A DNA stretch of 64,000 nucleotides, from contig VXRC01000024.1 of NCBI GenBank assembly GCA_009838645.1, positions 18,494 through 82,493 of the forward strand, in the 5' to 3' direction. The number at the start of each line of letters is the position of its first letter. Position 1 is the stretch's first letter. Source of the stretch: Gemmatimonadota bacterium (lineage in GTDB: Bacteria; JAAXHH01). The translations under genes were made by a program, and so were the position numbers. Positions 9,305 through 19,342 of this stretch are shown here, one piece after another. Below the pieces are notes generated by a model. The model searched no databases. It was not told where the DNA came from and saw only the letters and a program-made list of their open reading frames with translations.

Positions 9305-10999
9305 GTGGCCGTGATGGGCCAGCAGGCGGCGGGATTCACCGTCGTGAAAATCGATCCGGCCACCGGCGCGACGTCCCAGGCGACTTCGCCCGATCCCACC
9401 GCCAATTTCCCCACGGGCGCCTTGCGCACCCGAGATGGCCGGATCTACGTCGGCGCCGCCTACGCCGGGCATCTCCACTGTTACGATCCCAAGACGGAAC
9501 AGTTGGACGACCTGGGCGCCATCAACCTGCCCGACGATACCTTCCCCTGTAATATGGATGAAGACGAAAACGGCGTAATCTGGATCGGATGCTACGGGTC
9601 GGCCGGCCTGACGAGCTACGACCCGGCGTCCGGTGCGTTCACCCGCCACGGGCGGATGGACGAGACCGACATGTACTGCTATCCCTACGTGGGCGCCGGG
9701 GGAACGGTCGCCTGCAACATCAGGATGACCCGTCCGCACGTGGTCGTCTACGATCCAGTATCGGGCCGGCGCGAGACCGTGGGACCCGTGGTGGTCACGG
9801 AGGACGGGGGATCGCTTAACCTGTACAGGGCGGCCGACGACCAACTCTACATCCGGTCGACCGCAGGCGATTTCAGACTGGACGGCTTCGAGGCCAAACC
9901 CGTTGCAGCCCTCCCCGACCCGGCGCCGCCGCTGACGATGTCCGACGGATCCACGGCGGATTTCGCTGACCGGGAAATCCAGATGTTCCGCGAGATGGCC
10001 ATTACCCGGCCGGAATCCGGCGGGACGCGCATCTTGCCCGTAGCCTACGAGTCCGCGGGCAGCGAGATCTTCCTGGTGCATCGCGGGCCCGACGACAACC
10101 TGTACGGTTCGAGCATCCTGCCTCTGCACCTGTTTCGACATGATCCGTCCACCGGCGCCATGGACGACCTGGGCATATGCACCACCGCCACCGGGGAAGC
10201 CTATTCCATGGCCAACATGGACGGCAGCCTCTACATCTGTTCCTACCCGGGCGCCGTGCTGTCCGTCTACGATCCTGCCCGGCCCTATCACTTTGGAAAG
10301 GACACCGGCAGCAACCCCCGGGATCTCGGCCGCATGGACGAATTCTCCTATCGACCACGTTCCATGGTCGCAGGTCCGCTTGGCCGGGTGTGGACGGCCT
10401 CCGTACCGAACTACGGCATGTGGGGAGGACCGTTGTCCTGGTACGATCCGGTCGCGGATGCGTTCGGTACCTATCGCGATATCGCCGGGGAAGCCAGTTG
10501 CTGGTCACTGGCCTGGCTGGAGGCCCATGGCCTGCTGGCCATCGGGACGACGATCGACGGCGGCACCGGCACGCAGCCGCGCGTAGACCAGGCGTCGCTG
10601 TTCCTCTGGGATTACGAGAAGGAGGAAAAGGTGTGGGAAGGCCGGCTTCCGGTAGAGGTTACGGCCGTCGACGCGCTGGCCGTCATGGACGGCGGCCTGC
10701 TATGCGGGACGGCCCGTGCGGGATCCGGGTCCATCCTATTCGATTTCGATGCAGGTGACTGGCGATTCGTGCACCTGGCTTCCCTGCCGGGTGGTCGCTC
10801 GCTGGAAGGTGGCCTCCAGACCGGTCCCGATGGCGGGATATACGGATTTACGACCGAATGTTTCTACCGTTTCGATGCCGCCGCCGGCGTTGTGACCACG
10901 ATTCACGAAGCGCCGTCCGCCTTCCAGAATCCCGGTCCGATGTACGGGGACGGTGTCTACTTCACGAAGAAACACGAGCTGAAGAAACTGGTGTTCTGA
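9305..10999 (+). CDS. Hypothetical beta-propeller repeat protein; no signal peptide evident
   Basis: 564-aa ORF starting at GTG (an in-frame ATG follows 3 codons later). A YDPxxG-like motif recurs about every 50 aa (CYDPKTEQ, SYDPASGAF, VYDPVSGRR, VYDPARPYH, WYDPVADAF). Confidence 0.45.
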   Translation: MAVMGQQAAGFTVVKIDPATGATSQATSPDPTANFPTGALRTRDGRIYVGAAYAGHLHCYDPKTEQLDDLGAINLPDDTFPCNMDEDENGVIWIGCYGSAGLTSYDPASGAFTRHGRMDETDMYCYPYVGAGGTVACNIRMTRPHVVVYDPVSGRRETVGPVVVTEDGGSLNLYRAADDQLYIRSTAGDFRLDGFEAKPVAALPDPAPPLTMSDGSTADFADREIQMFREMAITRPESGGTRILPVAYESAGSEIFLVHRGPDDNLYGSSILPLHLFRHDPSTGAMDDLGICTTATGEAYSMANMDGSLYICSYPGAVLSVYDPARPYHFGKDTGSNPRDLGRMDEFSYRPRSMVAGPLGRVWTASVPNYGMWGGPLSWYDPVADAFGTYRDIAGEASCWSLAWLEAHGLLAIGTTIDGGTGTQPRVDQASLFLWDYEKEEKVWEGRLPVEVTAVDALAVMDGGLLCGTARAGSGSILFDFDAGDWRFVHLASLPGGRSLEGGLQTGPDGGIYGFTTECFYRFDAAAGVVTTIHEAPSAFQNPGPMYGDGVYFTKKHELKKLVF

Positions 11000-12192: not shown

Positions 12193-12325
12193 AAACAGCC
12201 CCTTCCTGCGATTTGCCAGACCTACCCGGAAAGGCCGTGCCGGAAACCCGGTAAACTCACCTGGACCAATGCCGACCCGCCTCTACTTGAACCCAGGGGG
12301 CGTTGTCGAAAAAGGCGGTCAGCCC

Positions 12326-12808
12326 ATGACCATGCACGACGACATCGATCCAGCCCTGGATCTCGTCCTTGAGCGCCACATCCCGGACGTCACGCCCGCC
12401 CAGCTATGGCGAGCCTGGACCGAGCCCGAGGCGTTAAAGCGATGGTTCACGCCGAAGCCGTGGGAGACGACGGCCTGTGAAATCGATCTGCGGCCCGGCG
12501 GCGCCTTCGGCACGACGATGCGCTCACCCGAAGGCGAAGAGGTATCGGGCACAGGGTGCTATCTGGAGATCGTCGAGCACCGGAGGCTCGTATGGACCGA
12601 TGCACTGGAGCCAGGCTATCGTCCGGGTGCGTCACCATTCATGACGGCCATCATCACGATGGCGCCCGAAGGCGACGGTACGCGCTATCGTGCGCTTGTA
12701 CGGCATCACGACGAAGCCGCACGCCAAAAGCACGAGGAAATGGGGTTTTTTACAGGCTGGGGCACGGCACTCGATCAACTCGTTGAGCACGCGCGGAAAC
12801 TTGACTGA
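12326..12808 (+). CDS. SRPBCC (AHSA1/polyketide-cyclase-like) domain protein
   Basis: ~160 aa, pattern typical of Activator-of-Hsp90-ATPase-homolog/SRPBCC proteins. Start at the ATG at 12326 within ORF 12269..12808. Confidence 0.45.
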   Translation: MTMHDDIDPALDLVLERHIPDVTPAQLWRAWTEPEALKRWFTPKPWETTACEIDLRPGGAFGTTMRSPEGEEVSGTGCYLEIVEHRRLVWTDALEPGYRPGASPFMTAIITMAPEGDGTRYRALVRHHDEAARQKHEEMGFFTGWGTALDQLVEHARKLD

Positions 12809-12834: not shown

Positions 12835-13626
12835 CTACAGGGCGATGATCCTCCGGATGCGCTCGGCGGTTTCCCGCATGTTGTCGTCGTCGCCGCCGAC
12901 CTCGCTCACCAGGGCTCCGTCGAAACTGATGCCGCGCAGTTCGGTCATGACCGCAGGCCAGTCCGTGTCGCCATCCATCAGCTGGACCCAGGCGCCTTCC
13001 CCGCGCAGGAAGTCCTTCACGTGCACCTTGAAGATCCGGCGGCCCAGTTCCTTGATCCACATGTCGGGGTAGCCGTAGAGGATCATGTTGGCCGTGTCCA
13101 GGTAGATCCCGACGGCGGGCGACCCGACCTCGTCGACGAGCTGGCGGGCTTCCCGGGGACTCAGCATGAACTGGTTCCACACGTTCTCGATGCCGATCCG
13201 TGTGCCGCGACGTTCCGCCTCGGGCGCGAGATCACGCAGGGCGTCGCGGAAGTTGTCCCAGGTCGTCCCGTAGGAGCTCGCCGGATCGAGCGCTCCGGGA
13301 TGCAGAAGGAGGGCGTCCACCCCCAGGATCTCGGCGATTTCGAAACCGCGCTTGAGGATGGCAACCCGCTTCGCCCGTTCTTCCGCGGACGGCGATAGCA
13401 GGGATCCGGCATCGCCGCGGATGGCGATCATGGAACTCAGTTCGAGGCCGTGGTTCCTGCAGGCCTCCCCCACGGCGGCGATCTCCGGGGTCGAGGCGTC
13501 AATGTTCGGGAAACCGCTGTCGGAGAAAACCAGTTCGATGGCCTCGTAGCCCAGGTTTCGGGCCTTTGAGAGATCCGCTTCGAGATCCTGGCGGGCGAGA
13601 CAGAGTTGCGTGATGCCTGGCTTCAT
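12835..13626 (-). CDS. Sugar phosphate isomerase/epimerase (xylose-isomerase-like TIM barrel)
   Basis: The product begins MKPGITQLCL... and has family features (IGIENVWNQF, GIYLDTANM). An alternative start lies at 13659. Confidence 0.6.
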   Translation of the reverse strand: MKPGITQLCLARQDLEADLSKARNLGYEAIELVFSDSGFPNIDASTPEIAAVGEACRNHGLELSSMIAIRGDAGSLLSPSAEERAKRVAILKRGFEIAEILGVDALLLHPGALDPASSYGTTWDNFRDALRDLAPEAERRGTRIGIENVWNQFMLSPREARQLVDEVGSPAVGIYLDTANMILYGYPDMWIKELGRRIFKVHVKDFLRGEGAWVQLMDGDTDWPAVMTELRGISFDGALVSEVGGDDDNMRETAERIRRIIAL

Positions 13627-13775
13627 GGGGAGGCGGCTCCTTGGAATCGTTGCGGGCACATGAAATCGTTGCGGACGGCGGTAATTTTGAAGTTAACAGT
13701 CGTGTCGGGGTAGGTTATATTATAAGTAACAAAACGCAAGCGAATTGCGCTGCATCTGAAACGAGGAGGAAGACC

Positions 13776-14351
13776 ATGATTCATACACTGGCGCGGTGGT
13801 GCTTCGCCCTGGCCCTGGTCGGCCTGGTGGCGGAGTCCGCCGACGCGCAACCCCGTAACTTGGCGCCGAGGCTGAGTGAGGCCGCACCGGAGTTCAGCCT
13901 GCAGGACGTCAACGGCGAAACCGTCAACTTCGCCGATTACAAGGGCAGCAAGAACCTGCTTGTGGTCGTCGACCGCGGCTGGATAGGCTACTGGTGACCC
14001 CTTTGCTTACGGCAACTGGGGCAGTTGCAATCCGATTACGAACGCATAGCAGCACTCGACACCGAATTACTCTTCATCAATCCCGAAGACCTCGACCAGA
14101 CCAGGGACTTCGTCGCCAAATCGAAAGTCACGCGGGAAGCGCTTTCCTTCCGCGTTCTCGCCGACCCGGATCGGGCCATTCCCACCAAGTTCAAGATCCA
14201 GAAAGCGACCGACAAGGGGACGGAAGTCATTCCCACGGCCTTCATCATCGACAAGGAAGGCGTCCTTCGGTTCAAGTACGTGGGTTCGGATCCCTTCGAC
14301 CGGCCGTCGACAGACAGCCTGGTGGAGATCCTGGATATGATCGAAGGGTAG
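13776..14351 (+). CDS. Secreted thioredoxin-fold redoxin (AhpC/TSA, TlpA/ResA-like); putative selenoprotein with in-frame UGA (13995-13997) at the first position of W-C-P-x-C (W-U-P-L-C)
   Basis: ORFs 13641..13997 and 14025..14351 share one frame and are separated only by TGA. The read-through product has a signal peptide (MIHTLARWCFALALVGLVAESADA) and redoxin motifs (APEFSLQDVNGETVNFADYKG...IPTAFIIDKEGVL...YVG). The RBS GAGGAGG precedes the ATG at 13776. Confidence 0.55.
14012..14028 (+). promoter_or_regulatory. Putative bacterial SECIS-like hairpin (GCAACUG-GGG-CAGUUGC), 15 nt downstream of the in-frame UGA
   Basis: Perfect 7-bp inverted repeat with a G-rich apical loop, read directly from the sequence. 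The spacing from the UGA is in the bacterial SECIS range. Confidence 0.35.
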
Positions 14352-14414: not shown

Positions 14415-14834
14415 TCAGGACACCAGATTCCTGATCTCGTCGGACACGAATTCGACCAGGATCTGGTTTTCCAGCCAGACTTCGTAGAGCGGTCCGCCCA
14501 GCCTCGGCCGAAAGCGGTGGTGAAGTCCATGCGATTCCGCCACCGCTTTCAAATGGTCGAGGCTTTGCTGCGTTTCAAGCAGAAAATGGGTCGAATTGAA
14601 ATTCTGTACCTCTTCAACCGGTCTGAATTCCGCGGCGTGTTCCCCGGGGCAGAGCAGGTAGATGTTCGGGATAAATTCGATCATCTCACCCGACTGACAG
14701 TCCCAAGCGCATACCCAGGCACCTTCCATGGTCCTCGATGTGAATGGATATACTGATCCATACGTCAATTCTGCCAGAACCCTCGCTGCCCTTTCGGGTT
14801 TTGATGCCGTAATGGAAAGGTGTTTGATCTTCAT
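14415..14834 (-). CDS. VOC (glyoxalase/bleomycin-resistance/dioxygenase) family protein
   Basis: 139 aa with a VOC-like N-terminus (MKIKHLSITASKPERAARVLAEL). Lies in a lower-GC block. Confidence 0.4.
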   Translation of the reverse strand: MKIKHLSITASKPERAARVLAELTYGSVYPFTSRTMEGAWVCAWDCQSGEMIEFIPNIYLLCPGEHAAEFRPVEEVQNFNSTHFLLETQQSLDHLKAVAESHGLHHRFRPRLGGPLYEVWLENQILVEFVSDEIRNLVS

Positions 14835-14890
14835 ATGGCGATGCGACTCTATATGGGTGTGTAATCTGCAGAACGCTCACAAGCGTTGCG

Positions 14891-15214
14891 TTATTCACGC
14901 GGTTCAGTATGGATAAGAAAGACCTTCGTTTCAAATCCTCCTCTTTTCTCCTTCTTCGCGTTTCTCATTTTCTCGAGTTGTATCGGATCAATTCCCATTC
15001 GAGACGCAATAGCGTATACCACCTCCAGGATATCAACTAATTCCTCGGCGTCATTGGAAGTGTTGAATTCCCCGACTTCCTCCACAAGTTTGCGTCTGAG
15101 TTCATGAATATACTCGGCCCTGTCGAGAACTCGGGTCGTCGGACGATCGCCCGCAGCAGCAATGATATCGGGAATCCTGTCCCGCACAAGCTTGTTGTGG
15201 TCAACTCGTTTCAT
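14891..15214 (-). CDS. MazG-like nucleoside triphosphate pyrophosphohydrolase (PRA-PH fold)
   Basis: MKRVDHNKLVRDRIPDII...EELVDILEVVYAIA, characteristic of small all-alpha NTP-PPases. GGAAGG lies 8-13 nt upstream of the ATG at 15212-15214. Confidence 0.5.
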   Translation of the reverse strand: MKRVDHNKLVRDRIPDIIAAAGDRPTTRVLDRAEYIHELRRKLVEEVGEFNTSNDAEELVDILEVVYAIASRMGIDPIQLEKMRNAKKEKRGGFETKVFLIHTEPRE

Positions 15215-15239
15215 TGCTGCACCTTCCACGGCGTAATTG

Positions 15240-15623
15240 TCAAAACCGAACCTGGCCTGCAGGTGTCACGTCTGCGAAGTCACCGAGGATATCATTATAG
15301 TGAGCGATAATCTGCTCTGCTGTAAGTACATCGGAATCGAAAGTACTGTGTCCATCCTTGACTAGCGTTATCGAATATCCTGCAATACGAGCATGATGGC
15401 AGGTCGTGCTGATACAGTTCTCGGTTTGAACGCCTGTAATGAATAACCTGCCGATCTCCTTTTCATTCAAAATAGATGCTAACTGAGCTTCGCAAAACGC
15501 ATCCGGAGTTCGTTTCTGAACGACGATATCTCCCTTCTGCGGGGAAACCCGTTCGTGTATATGCCATCCTGGTGAATCCGTCCGATCCGGGTCGCCCGGT
15601 TTTCCGTTGTGTACGTTGCCCAA
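15240..15623 (-). pseudogene. Isochorismatase-family hydrolase fragment (C-terminal ~2/3 only; the N-terminal catalytic Asp region is missing)
   Basis: WHIHERVSPQKGDIVVQKRTPDAF...LFITGVQTENCISTTCHHARIAGYSITLVKDGHST matches the C-terminal part of YcaC-like isochorismatases. The upstream gene ends 9 nt away, leaving no room for the N-terminal ~60 aa. Confidence 0.4.
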
Positions 15624-15632
15624 TGTCGTTTC

Positions 15633-16559
15633 CTATATGCATTCCACGATGCGGTCTTCAATCTCAGCCAGCTCTTCGAATTGCCCTACCGTGCTTTTCC
15701 AGTCTTCCTGCGTGGCATAGTACTGCGCCAGTCCGTATGACTCGGCTTTTTTGACCAACCATTCCGCGGTTTCAGTTTGGTCTGCCGACTTCATGAAATC
15801 GGCCGCATCGAGGCAACGACGGGCGCCGATCGGCAGGACGAAGTGGACCAGCATGGCCGCGAATCCTTTGGGCGGTATACCGCGGATCACCTCGGCGGCC
15901 ATCCGGAACGCCTGCGAACCTCCAAAAAAGACCGGACCGGAGGGGGCGGCATGAATCAGTTCTCGTGCGTTTTCCAGCGTAGCCTTCAGCATGTCTTCGG
16001 TCGATACCTGACGGTCTTCCCGGAAATCGCCGCGCAGGGTGTATGCACTTGTTGCGTAGCCGAGATCAGTGGCATTCCACGCACGCAAAAGGTCATCGAC
16101 CGGCAGTACCGCGAATGGATAGAATTGCGGGTCATGCACCTGTACACGGTCGCCTTCGAGTTTCAGAGCTATAATGAAATGGTCTCCGCCACGTTTCAGC
16201 CGGTGATTCGGGTCATAGGGCAGGAAACCCAGGTCCAGGGGACCAAGCAGTACGGGGCCGTTCTTCAGGTTAGCTTTTAATGCTTCAAGAGCCGATTCAA
16301 CATCGTCACCCTCCCACTGTGTACACGTCCAACCCAGAATGCTGAGCGCACGGGACATCCCGCTGTTAGGATTCAGGTCGGCGTGGCTAGGGAAGAACAG
16401 TGGAGTATCAAACTGCAGGAACAGCTCGCCGAACGGCATACCCGTCATGCATTCCAACAGGCCGGGTTCCGGAAGATCGGCCATGCCGGCGTGCTGCAGA
16501 CACATGTGAAGGCTGTTGCTGTAACAGTAATGGCTGTTCCCGGTATAAGCGATGTGCAT
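15633..16559 (-). CDS. Papain-like fold protein, BtrH_N/DUF4872-like (tentative)
   Basis: 308 aa with an N-terminal Cys-containing motif (HYCYSNSLHMCL) reminiscent of BtrH N-terminal/peptidase-C39-like domains. Assignment by recollection only. Confidence 0.35.
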   Translation of the reverse strand: MHIAYTGNSHYCYSNSLHMCLQHAGMADLPEPGLLECMTGMPFGELFLQFDTPLFFPSHADLNPNSGMSRALSILGWTCTQWEGDDVESALEALKANLKNGPVLLGPLDLGFLPYDPNHRLKRGGDHFIIALKLEGDRVQVHDPQFYPFAVLPVDDLLRAWNATDLGYATSAYTLRGDFREDRQVSTEDMLKATLENARELIHAAPSGPVFFGGSQAFRMAAEVIRGIPPKGFAAMLVHFVLPIGARRCLDAADFMKSADQTETAEWLVKKAESYGLAQYYATQEDWKSTVGQFEELAEIEDRIVECI

Positions 16560-16705
16560 TTGCTGATCCTCTCGTCAAATATCGCAATGGATCGAATAAA
16601 CCCTCATTGTTTAAATGGGATTCATCCAGACCAATATACTATATATTTGTTTAGTATATGTCAAGAAATACGAGAGGAAACTTCCAGGTTTTTGCAGAAA
16701 AACAT

Positions 16706-18187: not shown

Positions 18188-19342
<1,155 letters not shown>

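Follow-up and report, generated by a model that had tools for sequence, protein, structure and literature searches.

A candidate selenocysteine codon with a compact SECIS-type hairpin in the gene of a predicted exported thioredoxin-fold oxidoreductase from a Gemmatimonadota bacterium

When a TGA triplet falls in frame within what reads as a single protein domain, is it a stop, a lesion, or a codon with a meaning of its own? The question is raised by a locus on contig VXRC01000024.1 of the Gemmatimonadota assembly GCA_009838645.1, of which a stretch of 64,000 nucleotides (nt), positions 18,494 to 82,493, was analysed; this stretch is called the window, and all coordinates are numbered within it. 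The open reading frames (ORFs) 13641..13997 and 14025..14351 share the same frame, and the sole interruption between them is the TGA at 13995-13997. The favoured reading, to which we assign a probability of about 0.88 from the sequence, is that this UGA is a selenocysteine (Sec) codon served by a compact hairpin of the selenocysteine insertion sequence (SECIS) type, within one gene for a secreted thioredoxin-fold oxidoreductase. The features that carry the argument are the following.

13763..13769, plus strand: GAGGAGG, the ribosome-binding site, separated by 6 nt from the ATG at 13776.
13776..14351, plus strand: candidate selenoprotein coding sequence, complete, with a single AhpC-TSA/Redoxin domain across the TGA and the same architecture in ten orthologs.
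13776..13847, plus strand: predicted signal peptide of the Sec export type, residues 1-24, MIHTLARWCFALALVGLVAESADA followed by Q, with a basic n-region, a hydrophobic core and an A-x-A cleavage motif (ADA/Q), read by eye from the sequence.
13989..14030, plus strand: recoding region TAC TGG TGA CCC CTT TGC TTA CGG CAA CTG GGG CAG TTG CAA, invariant in all 11 Gemmatimonadota-type sequences and covering both the TGA and the hairpin.
13995..13997, plus strand: in-frame UGA, the proposed Sec codon, residue 74; TGA in the 11 Gemmatimonadota-type sequences and in the loci L008 (two copies), L012, L084, L085 and L088, Cys codons in CxxC homologs.
13995..14006, plus strand: redox motif U-P-L-C, from Sec74 to Cys77 (TGC at 14004-14006), in the local context GYW-[TGA]-PLC, aligned with WCPPC of the TlpA/ResA-like structures 3kcm and 3hdc.
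13998..14011, plus strand: 14-nt spacer between UGA and hairpin, base-paired to 14011-14021 when the free RNA adopts a rival fold.
14012..14028, plus strand: SECIS-type hairpin with a 7-bp stem, GCAACUG/CAGUUGC, and the apical loop GGG (14019-14021), in the same register in five distinct sequences.
14232..14234, plus strand: codon of Pro153 in the motif V-I-P-T-A-F, aligned (3kcm, 2ywn) with the loop proline of TlpA/ResA and with the position of the catalytic arginine of peroxiredoxins.

Read through the TGA, the plus strand holds one gene, which runs from the ATG at 13776 to the TAG at 14349-14351 and counts 191 codons, including the single in-frame TGA. Its product matches the Pfam domain AhpC-TSA (PF00578) at 82.6 bits against a cut-off of 26 (E 2.8e-23, residues 35-166), a match that spans the TGA at residue 74, and the Redoxin domain (E 1.8e-19) likewise covers this codon. 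The redoxin appears to bear an N-terminal export signal that is also conserved in the orthologs, and an equivalent of the ribosome-binding site, AGGAGG, precedes the ATG of the ortholog L081. A preliminary description of the locus had proposed two same-frame ORFs split only by the TGA at 13995-13997, a GAGGAGG ribosome-binding site and a start at ATG 13776, and these coordinates were all confirmed; the signal-peptide redoxin of about 190 amino acids (aa) that it expected upon read-through is indeed a protein of 191 aa, with one AhpC-TSA domain across the TGA.

How well is this arrangement conserved? Orthologous DNA came from seven genomes, either Gemmatimonadetes-labelled or unclassified metagenome-assembled genomes (MAGs), several of them from sponges (L001-L007), and further orthologs from a JGI contig (L081, 63 % protein identity) and from two metagenome contigs (L082 and L083). 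Carriers of the gene include the complete chromosomes OZ241838.1, OX638340.1, OZ253560.1 and OZ245326.1 and the assemblies VXTP01 and JAPOZT01. The TGA is in frame at the same codon in 10 of these 10 orthologs, whose protein identities range from 63 to 98 %. The ratio of nonsynonymous to synonymous substitution rates (dN/dS) amounts to 0.07-0.22 in the N-terminal part of the mature protein and to 0.08-0.21 beyond the TGA; because it is low on both sides, both halves are evidently translated in this frame. Codons 75-83, that of Cys77 included, are conserved as well, although any restart after the TGA could come only downstream of them.

These data bear on two alternatives. The first is a pseudogene, or an assembly or sequencing error, in which an ancestral Cys codon would have suffered a nonsense change from TGC or TGT to TGA; a single base change suffices for this, and a single sequence could not exclude it. 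The TGA recurs, however, across 11 independent assemblies and also among distant homologs, purifying selection is strong downstream of it, and the codon lies within an invariant block, so that this explanation is effectively refuted. The second alternative is that the locus yields two products, a 73-aa secreted peptide that ends at the UGA and a 108-aa protein that starts from the TTG at 14025. Automated gene callers make exactly such calls in every genome, and a G-rich stretch precedes the TTG. By contrast, two products would cut a single thioredoxin-fold domain at its active site, and codons 75-83, with Cys77 and the motif P-x-C-x-x-Q-L, would lie in neither of them although they are conserved across phyla. 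Moreover, Dehalococcoidia forms with wholly different N-terminal regions share the in-frame arrangement, and we regard two separate products as very improbable. That annotation would split the gene had been foreseen from the sequence, and this proved correct: all 28 of the 28 close database relatives are C-terminal fragments of 108-109 aa. Together with 59 of the best 150 family representatives, they are stored as fragments of roughly 100-112 aa that start just after the TGA and hairpin, and in L081 the matching 73-aa N-terminal fragment has been called as a separate gene.

Could TGA simply have changed its meaning throughout these genomes? A true TGA stop ends the same gene in L003-L006, and in the window TGA outnumbers either of the other stops, terminating 18 of the 37 long ORFs. 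Since TGA is used as a genuine stop in both, recoding at residue 74 is local and context-specific, with no genome-wide reassignment. A global reassignment of TGA, as in genetic codes 4 or 25, was ruled out on these same two grounds.

If the TGA encodes Sec, what do other homologs carry in its place? Distant forms also hold a TGA at this column. The Dehalococcoidia locus L008 has two tandem genes, reading FW-TGA-PVC and FW-TGA-TFC, and further forms are FW-TGA-EFC (L012), FW-TGA-PFC (L088) and FW-TGA-GSC (the soil contigs L084 and L085). The two L008 genes (L008:3094 and L008:3764, on the Dehalococcoidia MAG OZ242027.1) are tandem paralogs, each with its in-frame TGA and a version of the hairpin whose loop is GGU in one and GUG in the other, and both have long Pro/Thr-rich N-terminal regions in place of the short signal peptide. 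Cys at the Sec column occurs in a group with RGWPGYQ-C-PFC-SRQ, a near match to RGWIGYW-U-PLC-LRQ of the window, in many TlpA-like WCPPC proteins and in FW-C-ESC forms. The C-terminal half served as query in an exhaustive HMMER search, and the best 150 representatives were classified. Full-length proteins account for 69 of these 150, and 50 of the 69 have CxxC at the aligned place; another 59 of the 150 are short proteins that start no more than 12 residues from the start of the window fragment. Such short, start-aligned representatives look like the signature of gene calls made after an in-frame stop. On these alignments the redox column is a predicted Sec/Cys pair across homologs, in line with the expectation of the preliminary description that orthologs and homologs should show Cys or Sec here and not a frame disruption: TGA in 10 of 10 orthologs, and TGA or Cys in the distant forms.

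Does the nucleotide sequence around the TGA bear a signal beyond its coding content? The invariant block of 42 nt is far longer than chance would allow, as the longest invariant run in 20,000 codon shuffles has a mean of 11 nt and a maximum of 27 nt. None of its 14 third codon positions varies, against about 10.7 expected, and elsewhere in the gene 71 % of codons vary at this position. Several of its codons are rare in this genome (TTA 0.9 %, CTT 6.4 %, TTG 7.2 % and CAA 13.5 %), with TTA and CTT, whose values are shares among Leu codons, both lying in the invariant spacer. The hairpin alone does not explain why the spacer is invariant or why its codons are so rare.

The hairpin itself lies 14 nt from the TGA when measured to the stem and 21 nt (13998-14018) when measured to the loop. 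Because the 42-nt block never varies in the Gemmatimonadota-type clade, covariation must come from the distant TGA forms, in which versions of the hairpin stand at the identical offset. The window type, GCAACUG-GGG-CAGUUGC, has as counterparts GCAGCUC-GGU-GAGCUGC (L008, first copy), GCAGCUC-GUG-GGGCUGC (L008, second copy), UCAGCUC-GUU-GAGUUGA (L012) and CAGCUC-GUC-GAGCUG (L088). Paired changes include CAA..UUG to CAG..CUG, which is synonymous on both sides, and G-C to U-A, and the change CUG..CAG to CUC..GAG couples an amino-acid change with a synonymous one. Altogether, 3 of the 7 stem pairs have changed on both sides, and in a count over seven sequence types, a small sample, pairing holds in 89.8 % of cells; sliding one arm out of register lowers this share to 14-45 %. 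Among 59 distinct Cys-form homologs taken as a control, none has 7 of 7 pairs and two have 6 of 7.

Does such a hairpin resemble a bacterial SECIS? The minimal SECIS of E. coli is an upper stem-loop of about 17 nt, some 11 nt from the UGA. Like the Zhang and Gladyshev consensus and its E. coli fdhF prototype, the window hairpin is a small stem-loop directly 3' of the UGA within the coding sequence, with a G at the start of the loop and a 21-nt spacing; it differs in its minimal loop of 3 nt, in having no bulged U, and in that the 5' arm of the Gemmatimonadota form is sequestered by a stabler helix in the free RNA. A published consensus model sets a loop of 3-9 nt, an upper stem of 4-16 bp and a free energy of at most -7.5 kcal/mol, and expects the two bases that open the loop to include a G, typically as GG or GU (PMC13188914, Fig. 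2). The geometry of the window hairpin agrees with this model in its stem of 7 bp, in its loop of 3 nt, which is the lower limit, and in its 21-nt distance from the UGA, and the loop starts with G[G/U] in five of five versions (GGG, GGU, GUG, GUU and GUC). Its energy is -7.4 kcal/mol as an isolated 17-mer and -8.8 kcal/mol in sequence context, and the Dehalococcoidia versions range from -6.2 to -10.1 kcal/mol.

A number of observations weigh against the Sec reading, and they concern both the RNA and the machinery that would decode it. First, in the free RNA the pair probability of the SECIS-type hairpin is about 0, and a rival fold of -19.1 kcal/mol wins. The stability z-score of the region is 0.09, so that stability alone is not significant; the isolated hairpin, at -7.4 kcal/mol, falls slightly short of the -7.5 kcal/mol of the model; and no Rfam family, SECIS or other, was matched at gathering or permissive thresholds. 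Second, the Gemmatimonadota sequences are all alike here, and all covariation stems from five sequence types. The JGI soil metagenome contigs L084 (L084:945) and L085 (L085:462) keep the TGA without a hairpin in the shared register, with 4 to 6 of 7 pairs, and their recoding signal, if any, is different from the shared hairpin. Third, ARAGORN detected no tRNA, and hence no tRNA-Sec, either within the 64-kb window or across 16 loci, and tblastn with E. coli queries gave no match to SelA, SelB or SelD in the window or in any retrieved locus. Finally, the link to sel genes that the literature offers holds at the level of the lineage only, with a GC content of 62 % in the window against 67-68 % for the published Gemmatimonadetes bins.

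How far the competing fold counts against the hairpin depends on the state of the RNA. In the rival fold (13995-14024), the UGA and CCCC (13998-14001) pair with GGGG (14018-14021) and UUGCU pairs with GGCAA, an arrangement mutually exclusive with the SECIS-type hairpin and absent from the Dehalococcoidia versions. Once 12-17 nt, counted from the UGA, are barred from pairing, the hairpin becomes the minimum-free-energy structure, and those 12-17 nt would sit inside a ribosome that is decoding the UGA. The perfect 7-bp SECIS-like hairpin of the preliminary description thus stands at 14012-14028, in register, covarying and restricted to TGA forms, but the free RNA prefers a different fold. A speculative idea, which we consider doubtful, is that the Gemmatimonadota recoding signal is a ribosome-gated two-state RNA: a helix resembling an anti-SECIS would hold the UGA and spacer paired with the 5' arm of the SECIS until the approaching ribosome melted it, whereupon GCAACUG would refold with CAGUUGC. 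If true, this would explain why the nucleotides of the spacer are invariant across the 11 orthologs and why its codons are very rare. Mechanistic novelty would follow only if this two-state idea holds; otherwise the locus offers no new mechanism and no new protein family.

For the decoding machinery, evidence comes from related organisms. The sponge metagenome assembly MKWU01, from Aplysina aerophoba, is the source of both the ortholog L083 and the Dehalococcoidia-type L088. The A. aerophoba metagenome paper describes SelA and SelB as co-occurring in most symbiont bins, and its Table S4 gives SelA/SelB/SelD counts of 1/1/1 in the Gemmatimonadetes bins bin43 and bin94 and of 3/1/1 in the SAR202 bin90. 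Sec users named in a survey supplement include several Chloroflexi, among them Dehalogenimonas. With these data a further alternative can be weighed, namely SelB-independent read-through, in which the UGA would at some frequency be decoded by a tRNA for Trp, Cys or Arg, either near-cognate or a suppressor, and the downstream structure would be merely stimulatory. In its favour, neither the window nor the retrieved loci showed any Sec machinery, and under programmed read-through, too, one would expect the downstream structure and the flanking frames to be conserved. Read-through of this kind would not, however, account for Cys at this column in homologs and the CxxC motif, which are the signature of a Sec/Cys pair, nor for a geometry that agrees with that of bacterial SECIS elements and loops that open with G in each of the five versions. 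In addition, the gene falls in a recognised selenoprotein family, and SelA, SelB and SelD are encoded in bins of related sponge symbionts. SelB-independent read-through is accordingly rated as unlikely, and Sec insertion is kept as the preferred reading.

Which residue would Sec replace, and to which family does the protein belong? In alignments, W-U-P-L-C falls on W-C-P-P-C of 3kcm and 3hdc, which would place Sec at the exposed nucleophilic N-terminal Cys. Alignment to a true peroxiredoxin (Prx), 2ywn (...YPAAFTQVC...), gives a different picture: its active-site Pro corresponds to Ile70, its Thr to Sec74, its peroxidatic Cys to Cys77 and its Arg to Pro153. The Prx active site PxxxTxxC with its conserved Arg is thus lacking in the window protein, and NCBIfam Prx models all score it far below their cut-offs. 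Because the Pro, Thr and Arg of peroxiredoxins are replaced by Ile70, Sec74 and Pro153, a peroxidase mechanism is not expected, and the sequence points to a thiol:disulfide oxidoreductase of the CxxC type. Pro153 would probably adopt a cis conformation. The earlier proposal that the TGA replaces the nucleophilic Cys therefore holds for the WCxxC of ResA/TlpA proteins and fails for the peroxiredoxins of the AhpC/TSA group, in which the TGA falls in the Thr column and Cys77 matches the peroxidatic Cys.

The literature lists Sec-peroxiredoxins as TxxU and Prx-like oxidoreductases as UxxC, and a UxxC family within PF00578 ('Prx-like 1' of the Global Ocean Sampling survey) has already been catalogued as a high-confidence predicted selenoprotein. 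By domain and motif, the basis on which reviews define the family, the predicted protein belongs to the Prx-like thiol:disulfide oxidoreductase selenoproteins (PF00578, UxxC), whose reference protein is WP_010940744.1. It shares with this UxxC/UxxU group the Pfam domain, a UxxC motif with Sec first, abundant CxxC homologs and a SECIS just downstream, and, as for the rest of the Prx-like UxxC family, the gene is known from prediction only. Two differences can be noted: the host lineage, sponge-associated bacteria of Gemmatimonadota type, is not mentioned in the selenoproteome literature examined, and identity to database members outside its own clade is at most 32 %.

Other relatives lie at various distances. 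The best matches among solved structures are extracytoplasmic oxidoreductases of the TlpA/ResA/CcmG type (3kcm, 3hdc and 1st9), with which the protein shares W-C-P-x-C as W-U-P-L-C, VPETF as IPTAF, and an N-terminal export signal, whereas it has Sec in place of their nucleophilic Cys and stays far below the cut-offs of the corresponding NCBIfam models (ResA, 42.6 against 170 bits; DsbE, 19.6 against 123; TlpA, 16.5 against 230). Its best NCBIfam match is the SelL-related redox protein NF040769 (E 6.6e-17), which shares a Prx-like fold and an equally placed redox motif; at 61.7 bits the match stays well short of the 120-bit cut-off, and the window motif is UxxC and not UxxU. Eukaryotic SelL is a Prx-like UxxU selenoprotein. 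Sec-peroxiredoxins (PF00578, TxxU) have the same Pfam family and fold, but carry their Sec or Cys second, in TxxU or TxxC, whereas the Sec of the window protein stands at the Thr position. A candidate TxxU Sec-peroxiredoxin was also encountered: L014:660, on the uncultured bacterium contig CBFDCL010000154.1, is AhpE/BCP-like and reads FTPV-TGA-TGQL, with the TGA at the peroxidatic position and a different downstream structure.

How would the gene be expressed and its product act? We infer actual Sec insertion, export, a substrate and a reductant in the following scheme. After the established bacterial Sec pathway, the hairpin at 14012-14028 would lie just outside the mRNA channel when the UGA at 13995-13997 is at the ribosome. 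SelB-GTP-Sec-tRNA(Sec) would bind the hairpin and deliver Sec in place of termination, and translation would go on to the TAG at 14349. The protein would then be exported to the periplasm and its signal peptide cleaved, whereupon, on the model of the CxxC and loop-Pro architecture of TlpA/ResA, Sec74 would attack a substrate disulfide or an oxidised thiol. Cys77 would resolve the intermediate to give an intramolecular selenenylsulfide, and a reductant would recycle the enzyme.

Does the surrounding DNA add to this picture? Two further features adjoin the gene.

13693..13721, plus strand: sigma-70-like promoter match TTAACA-17 nt-TATATT, 10 of 12 consensus positions, lying between the two divergent genes, 55 nt ahead of the ATG.
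12835..13659, minus strand: xylose isomerase-like TIM barrel, AP_endonuc_2 (E 1.2e-50), the divergent neighbour, paired with the redoxin gene in all orthologous loci including L081.

The promoter is a consensus match only, and as one such match was found against 0.4 expected in shuffles, it constitutes weak evidence. The flanks of the TIM-barrel/redoxin pair vary between genomes; an AHSA1/SRPBCC gene (12269-12808), for instance, occurs only in the window and in L001. On the other side lies a variable stretch (14585-16700) with a GC content of 0.48-0.56 against about 0.64 and with small ORFs without Pfam matches. An isochorismatase-domain ORF (15240-15623, minus strand), which covers only profile positions 68-154 of 175 and looks N-terminally truncated, may be a gene remnant, and a 564-aa ORF (9305-10999, plus strand) matches no Pfam family at E <= 1e-4. 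Pfam searches found no CcdA/DsbD, cytochrome-maturation or sel genes among ten neighbours in the window and ten at the Dehalococcoidia locus. No second selenoprotein gene emerged when every in-frame TGA of the window with coding-like flanks was scanned, the other matches being antisense shadows without redox motifs.

What, then, does the locus mean for this family and its hosts? If the UGA is read as Sec, the gene corrects a systematic annotation error of gene finders. A compact SECIS of 17 nt with covariation across phyla could improve models of bacterial SECIS elements. The finding would also add sponge-associated bacteria of Gemmatimonadota type to the users of a Sec-containing exported oxidoreductase of the CxxC type, and this occurrence fits the enrichment of SelA and SelB that had been noted before among sponge symbionts.

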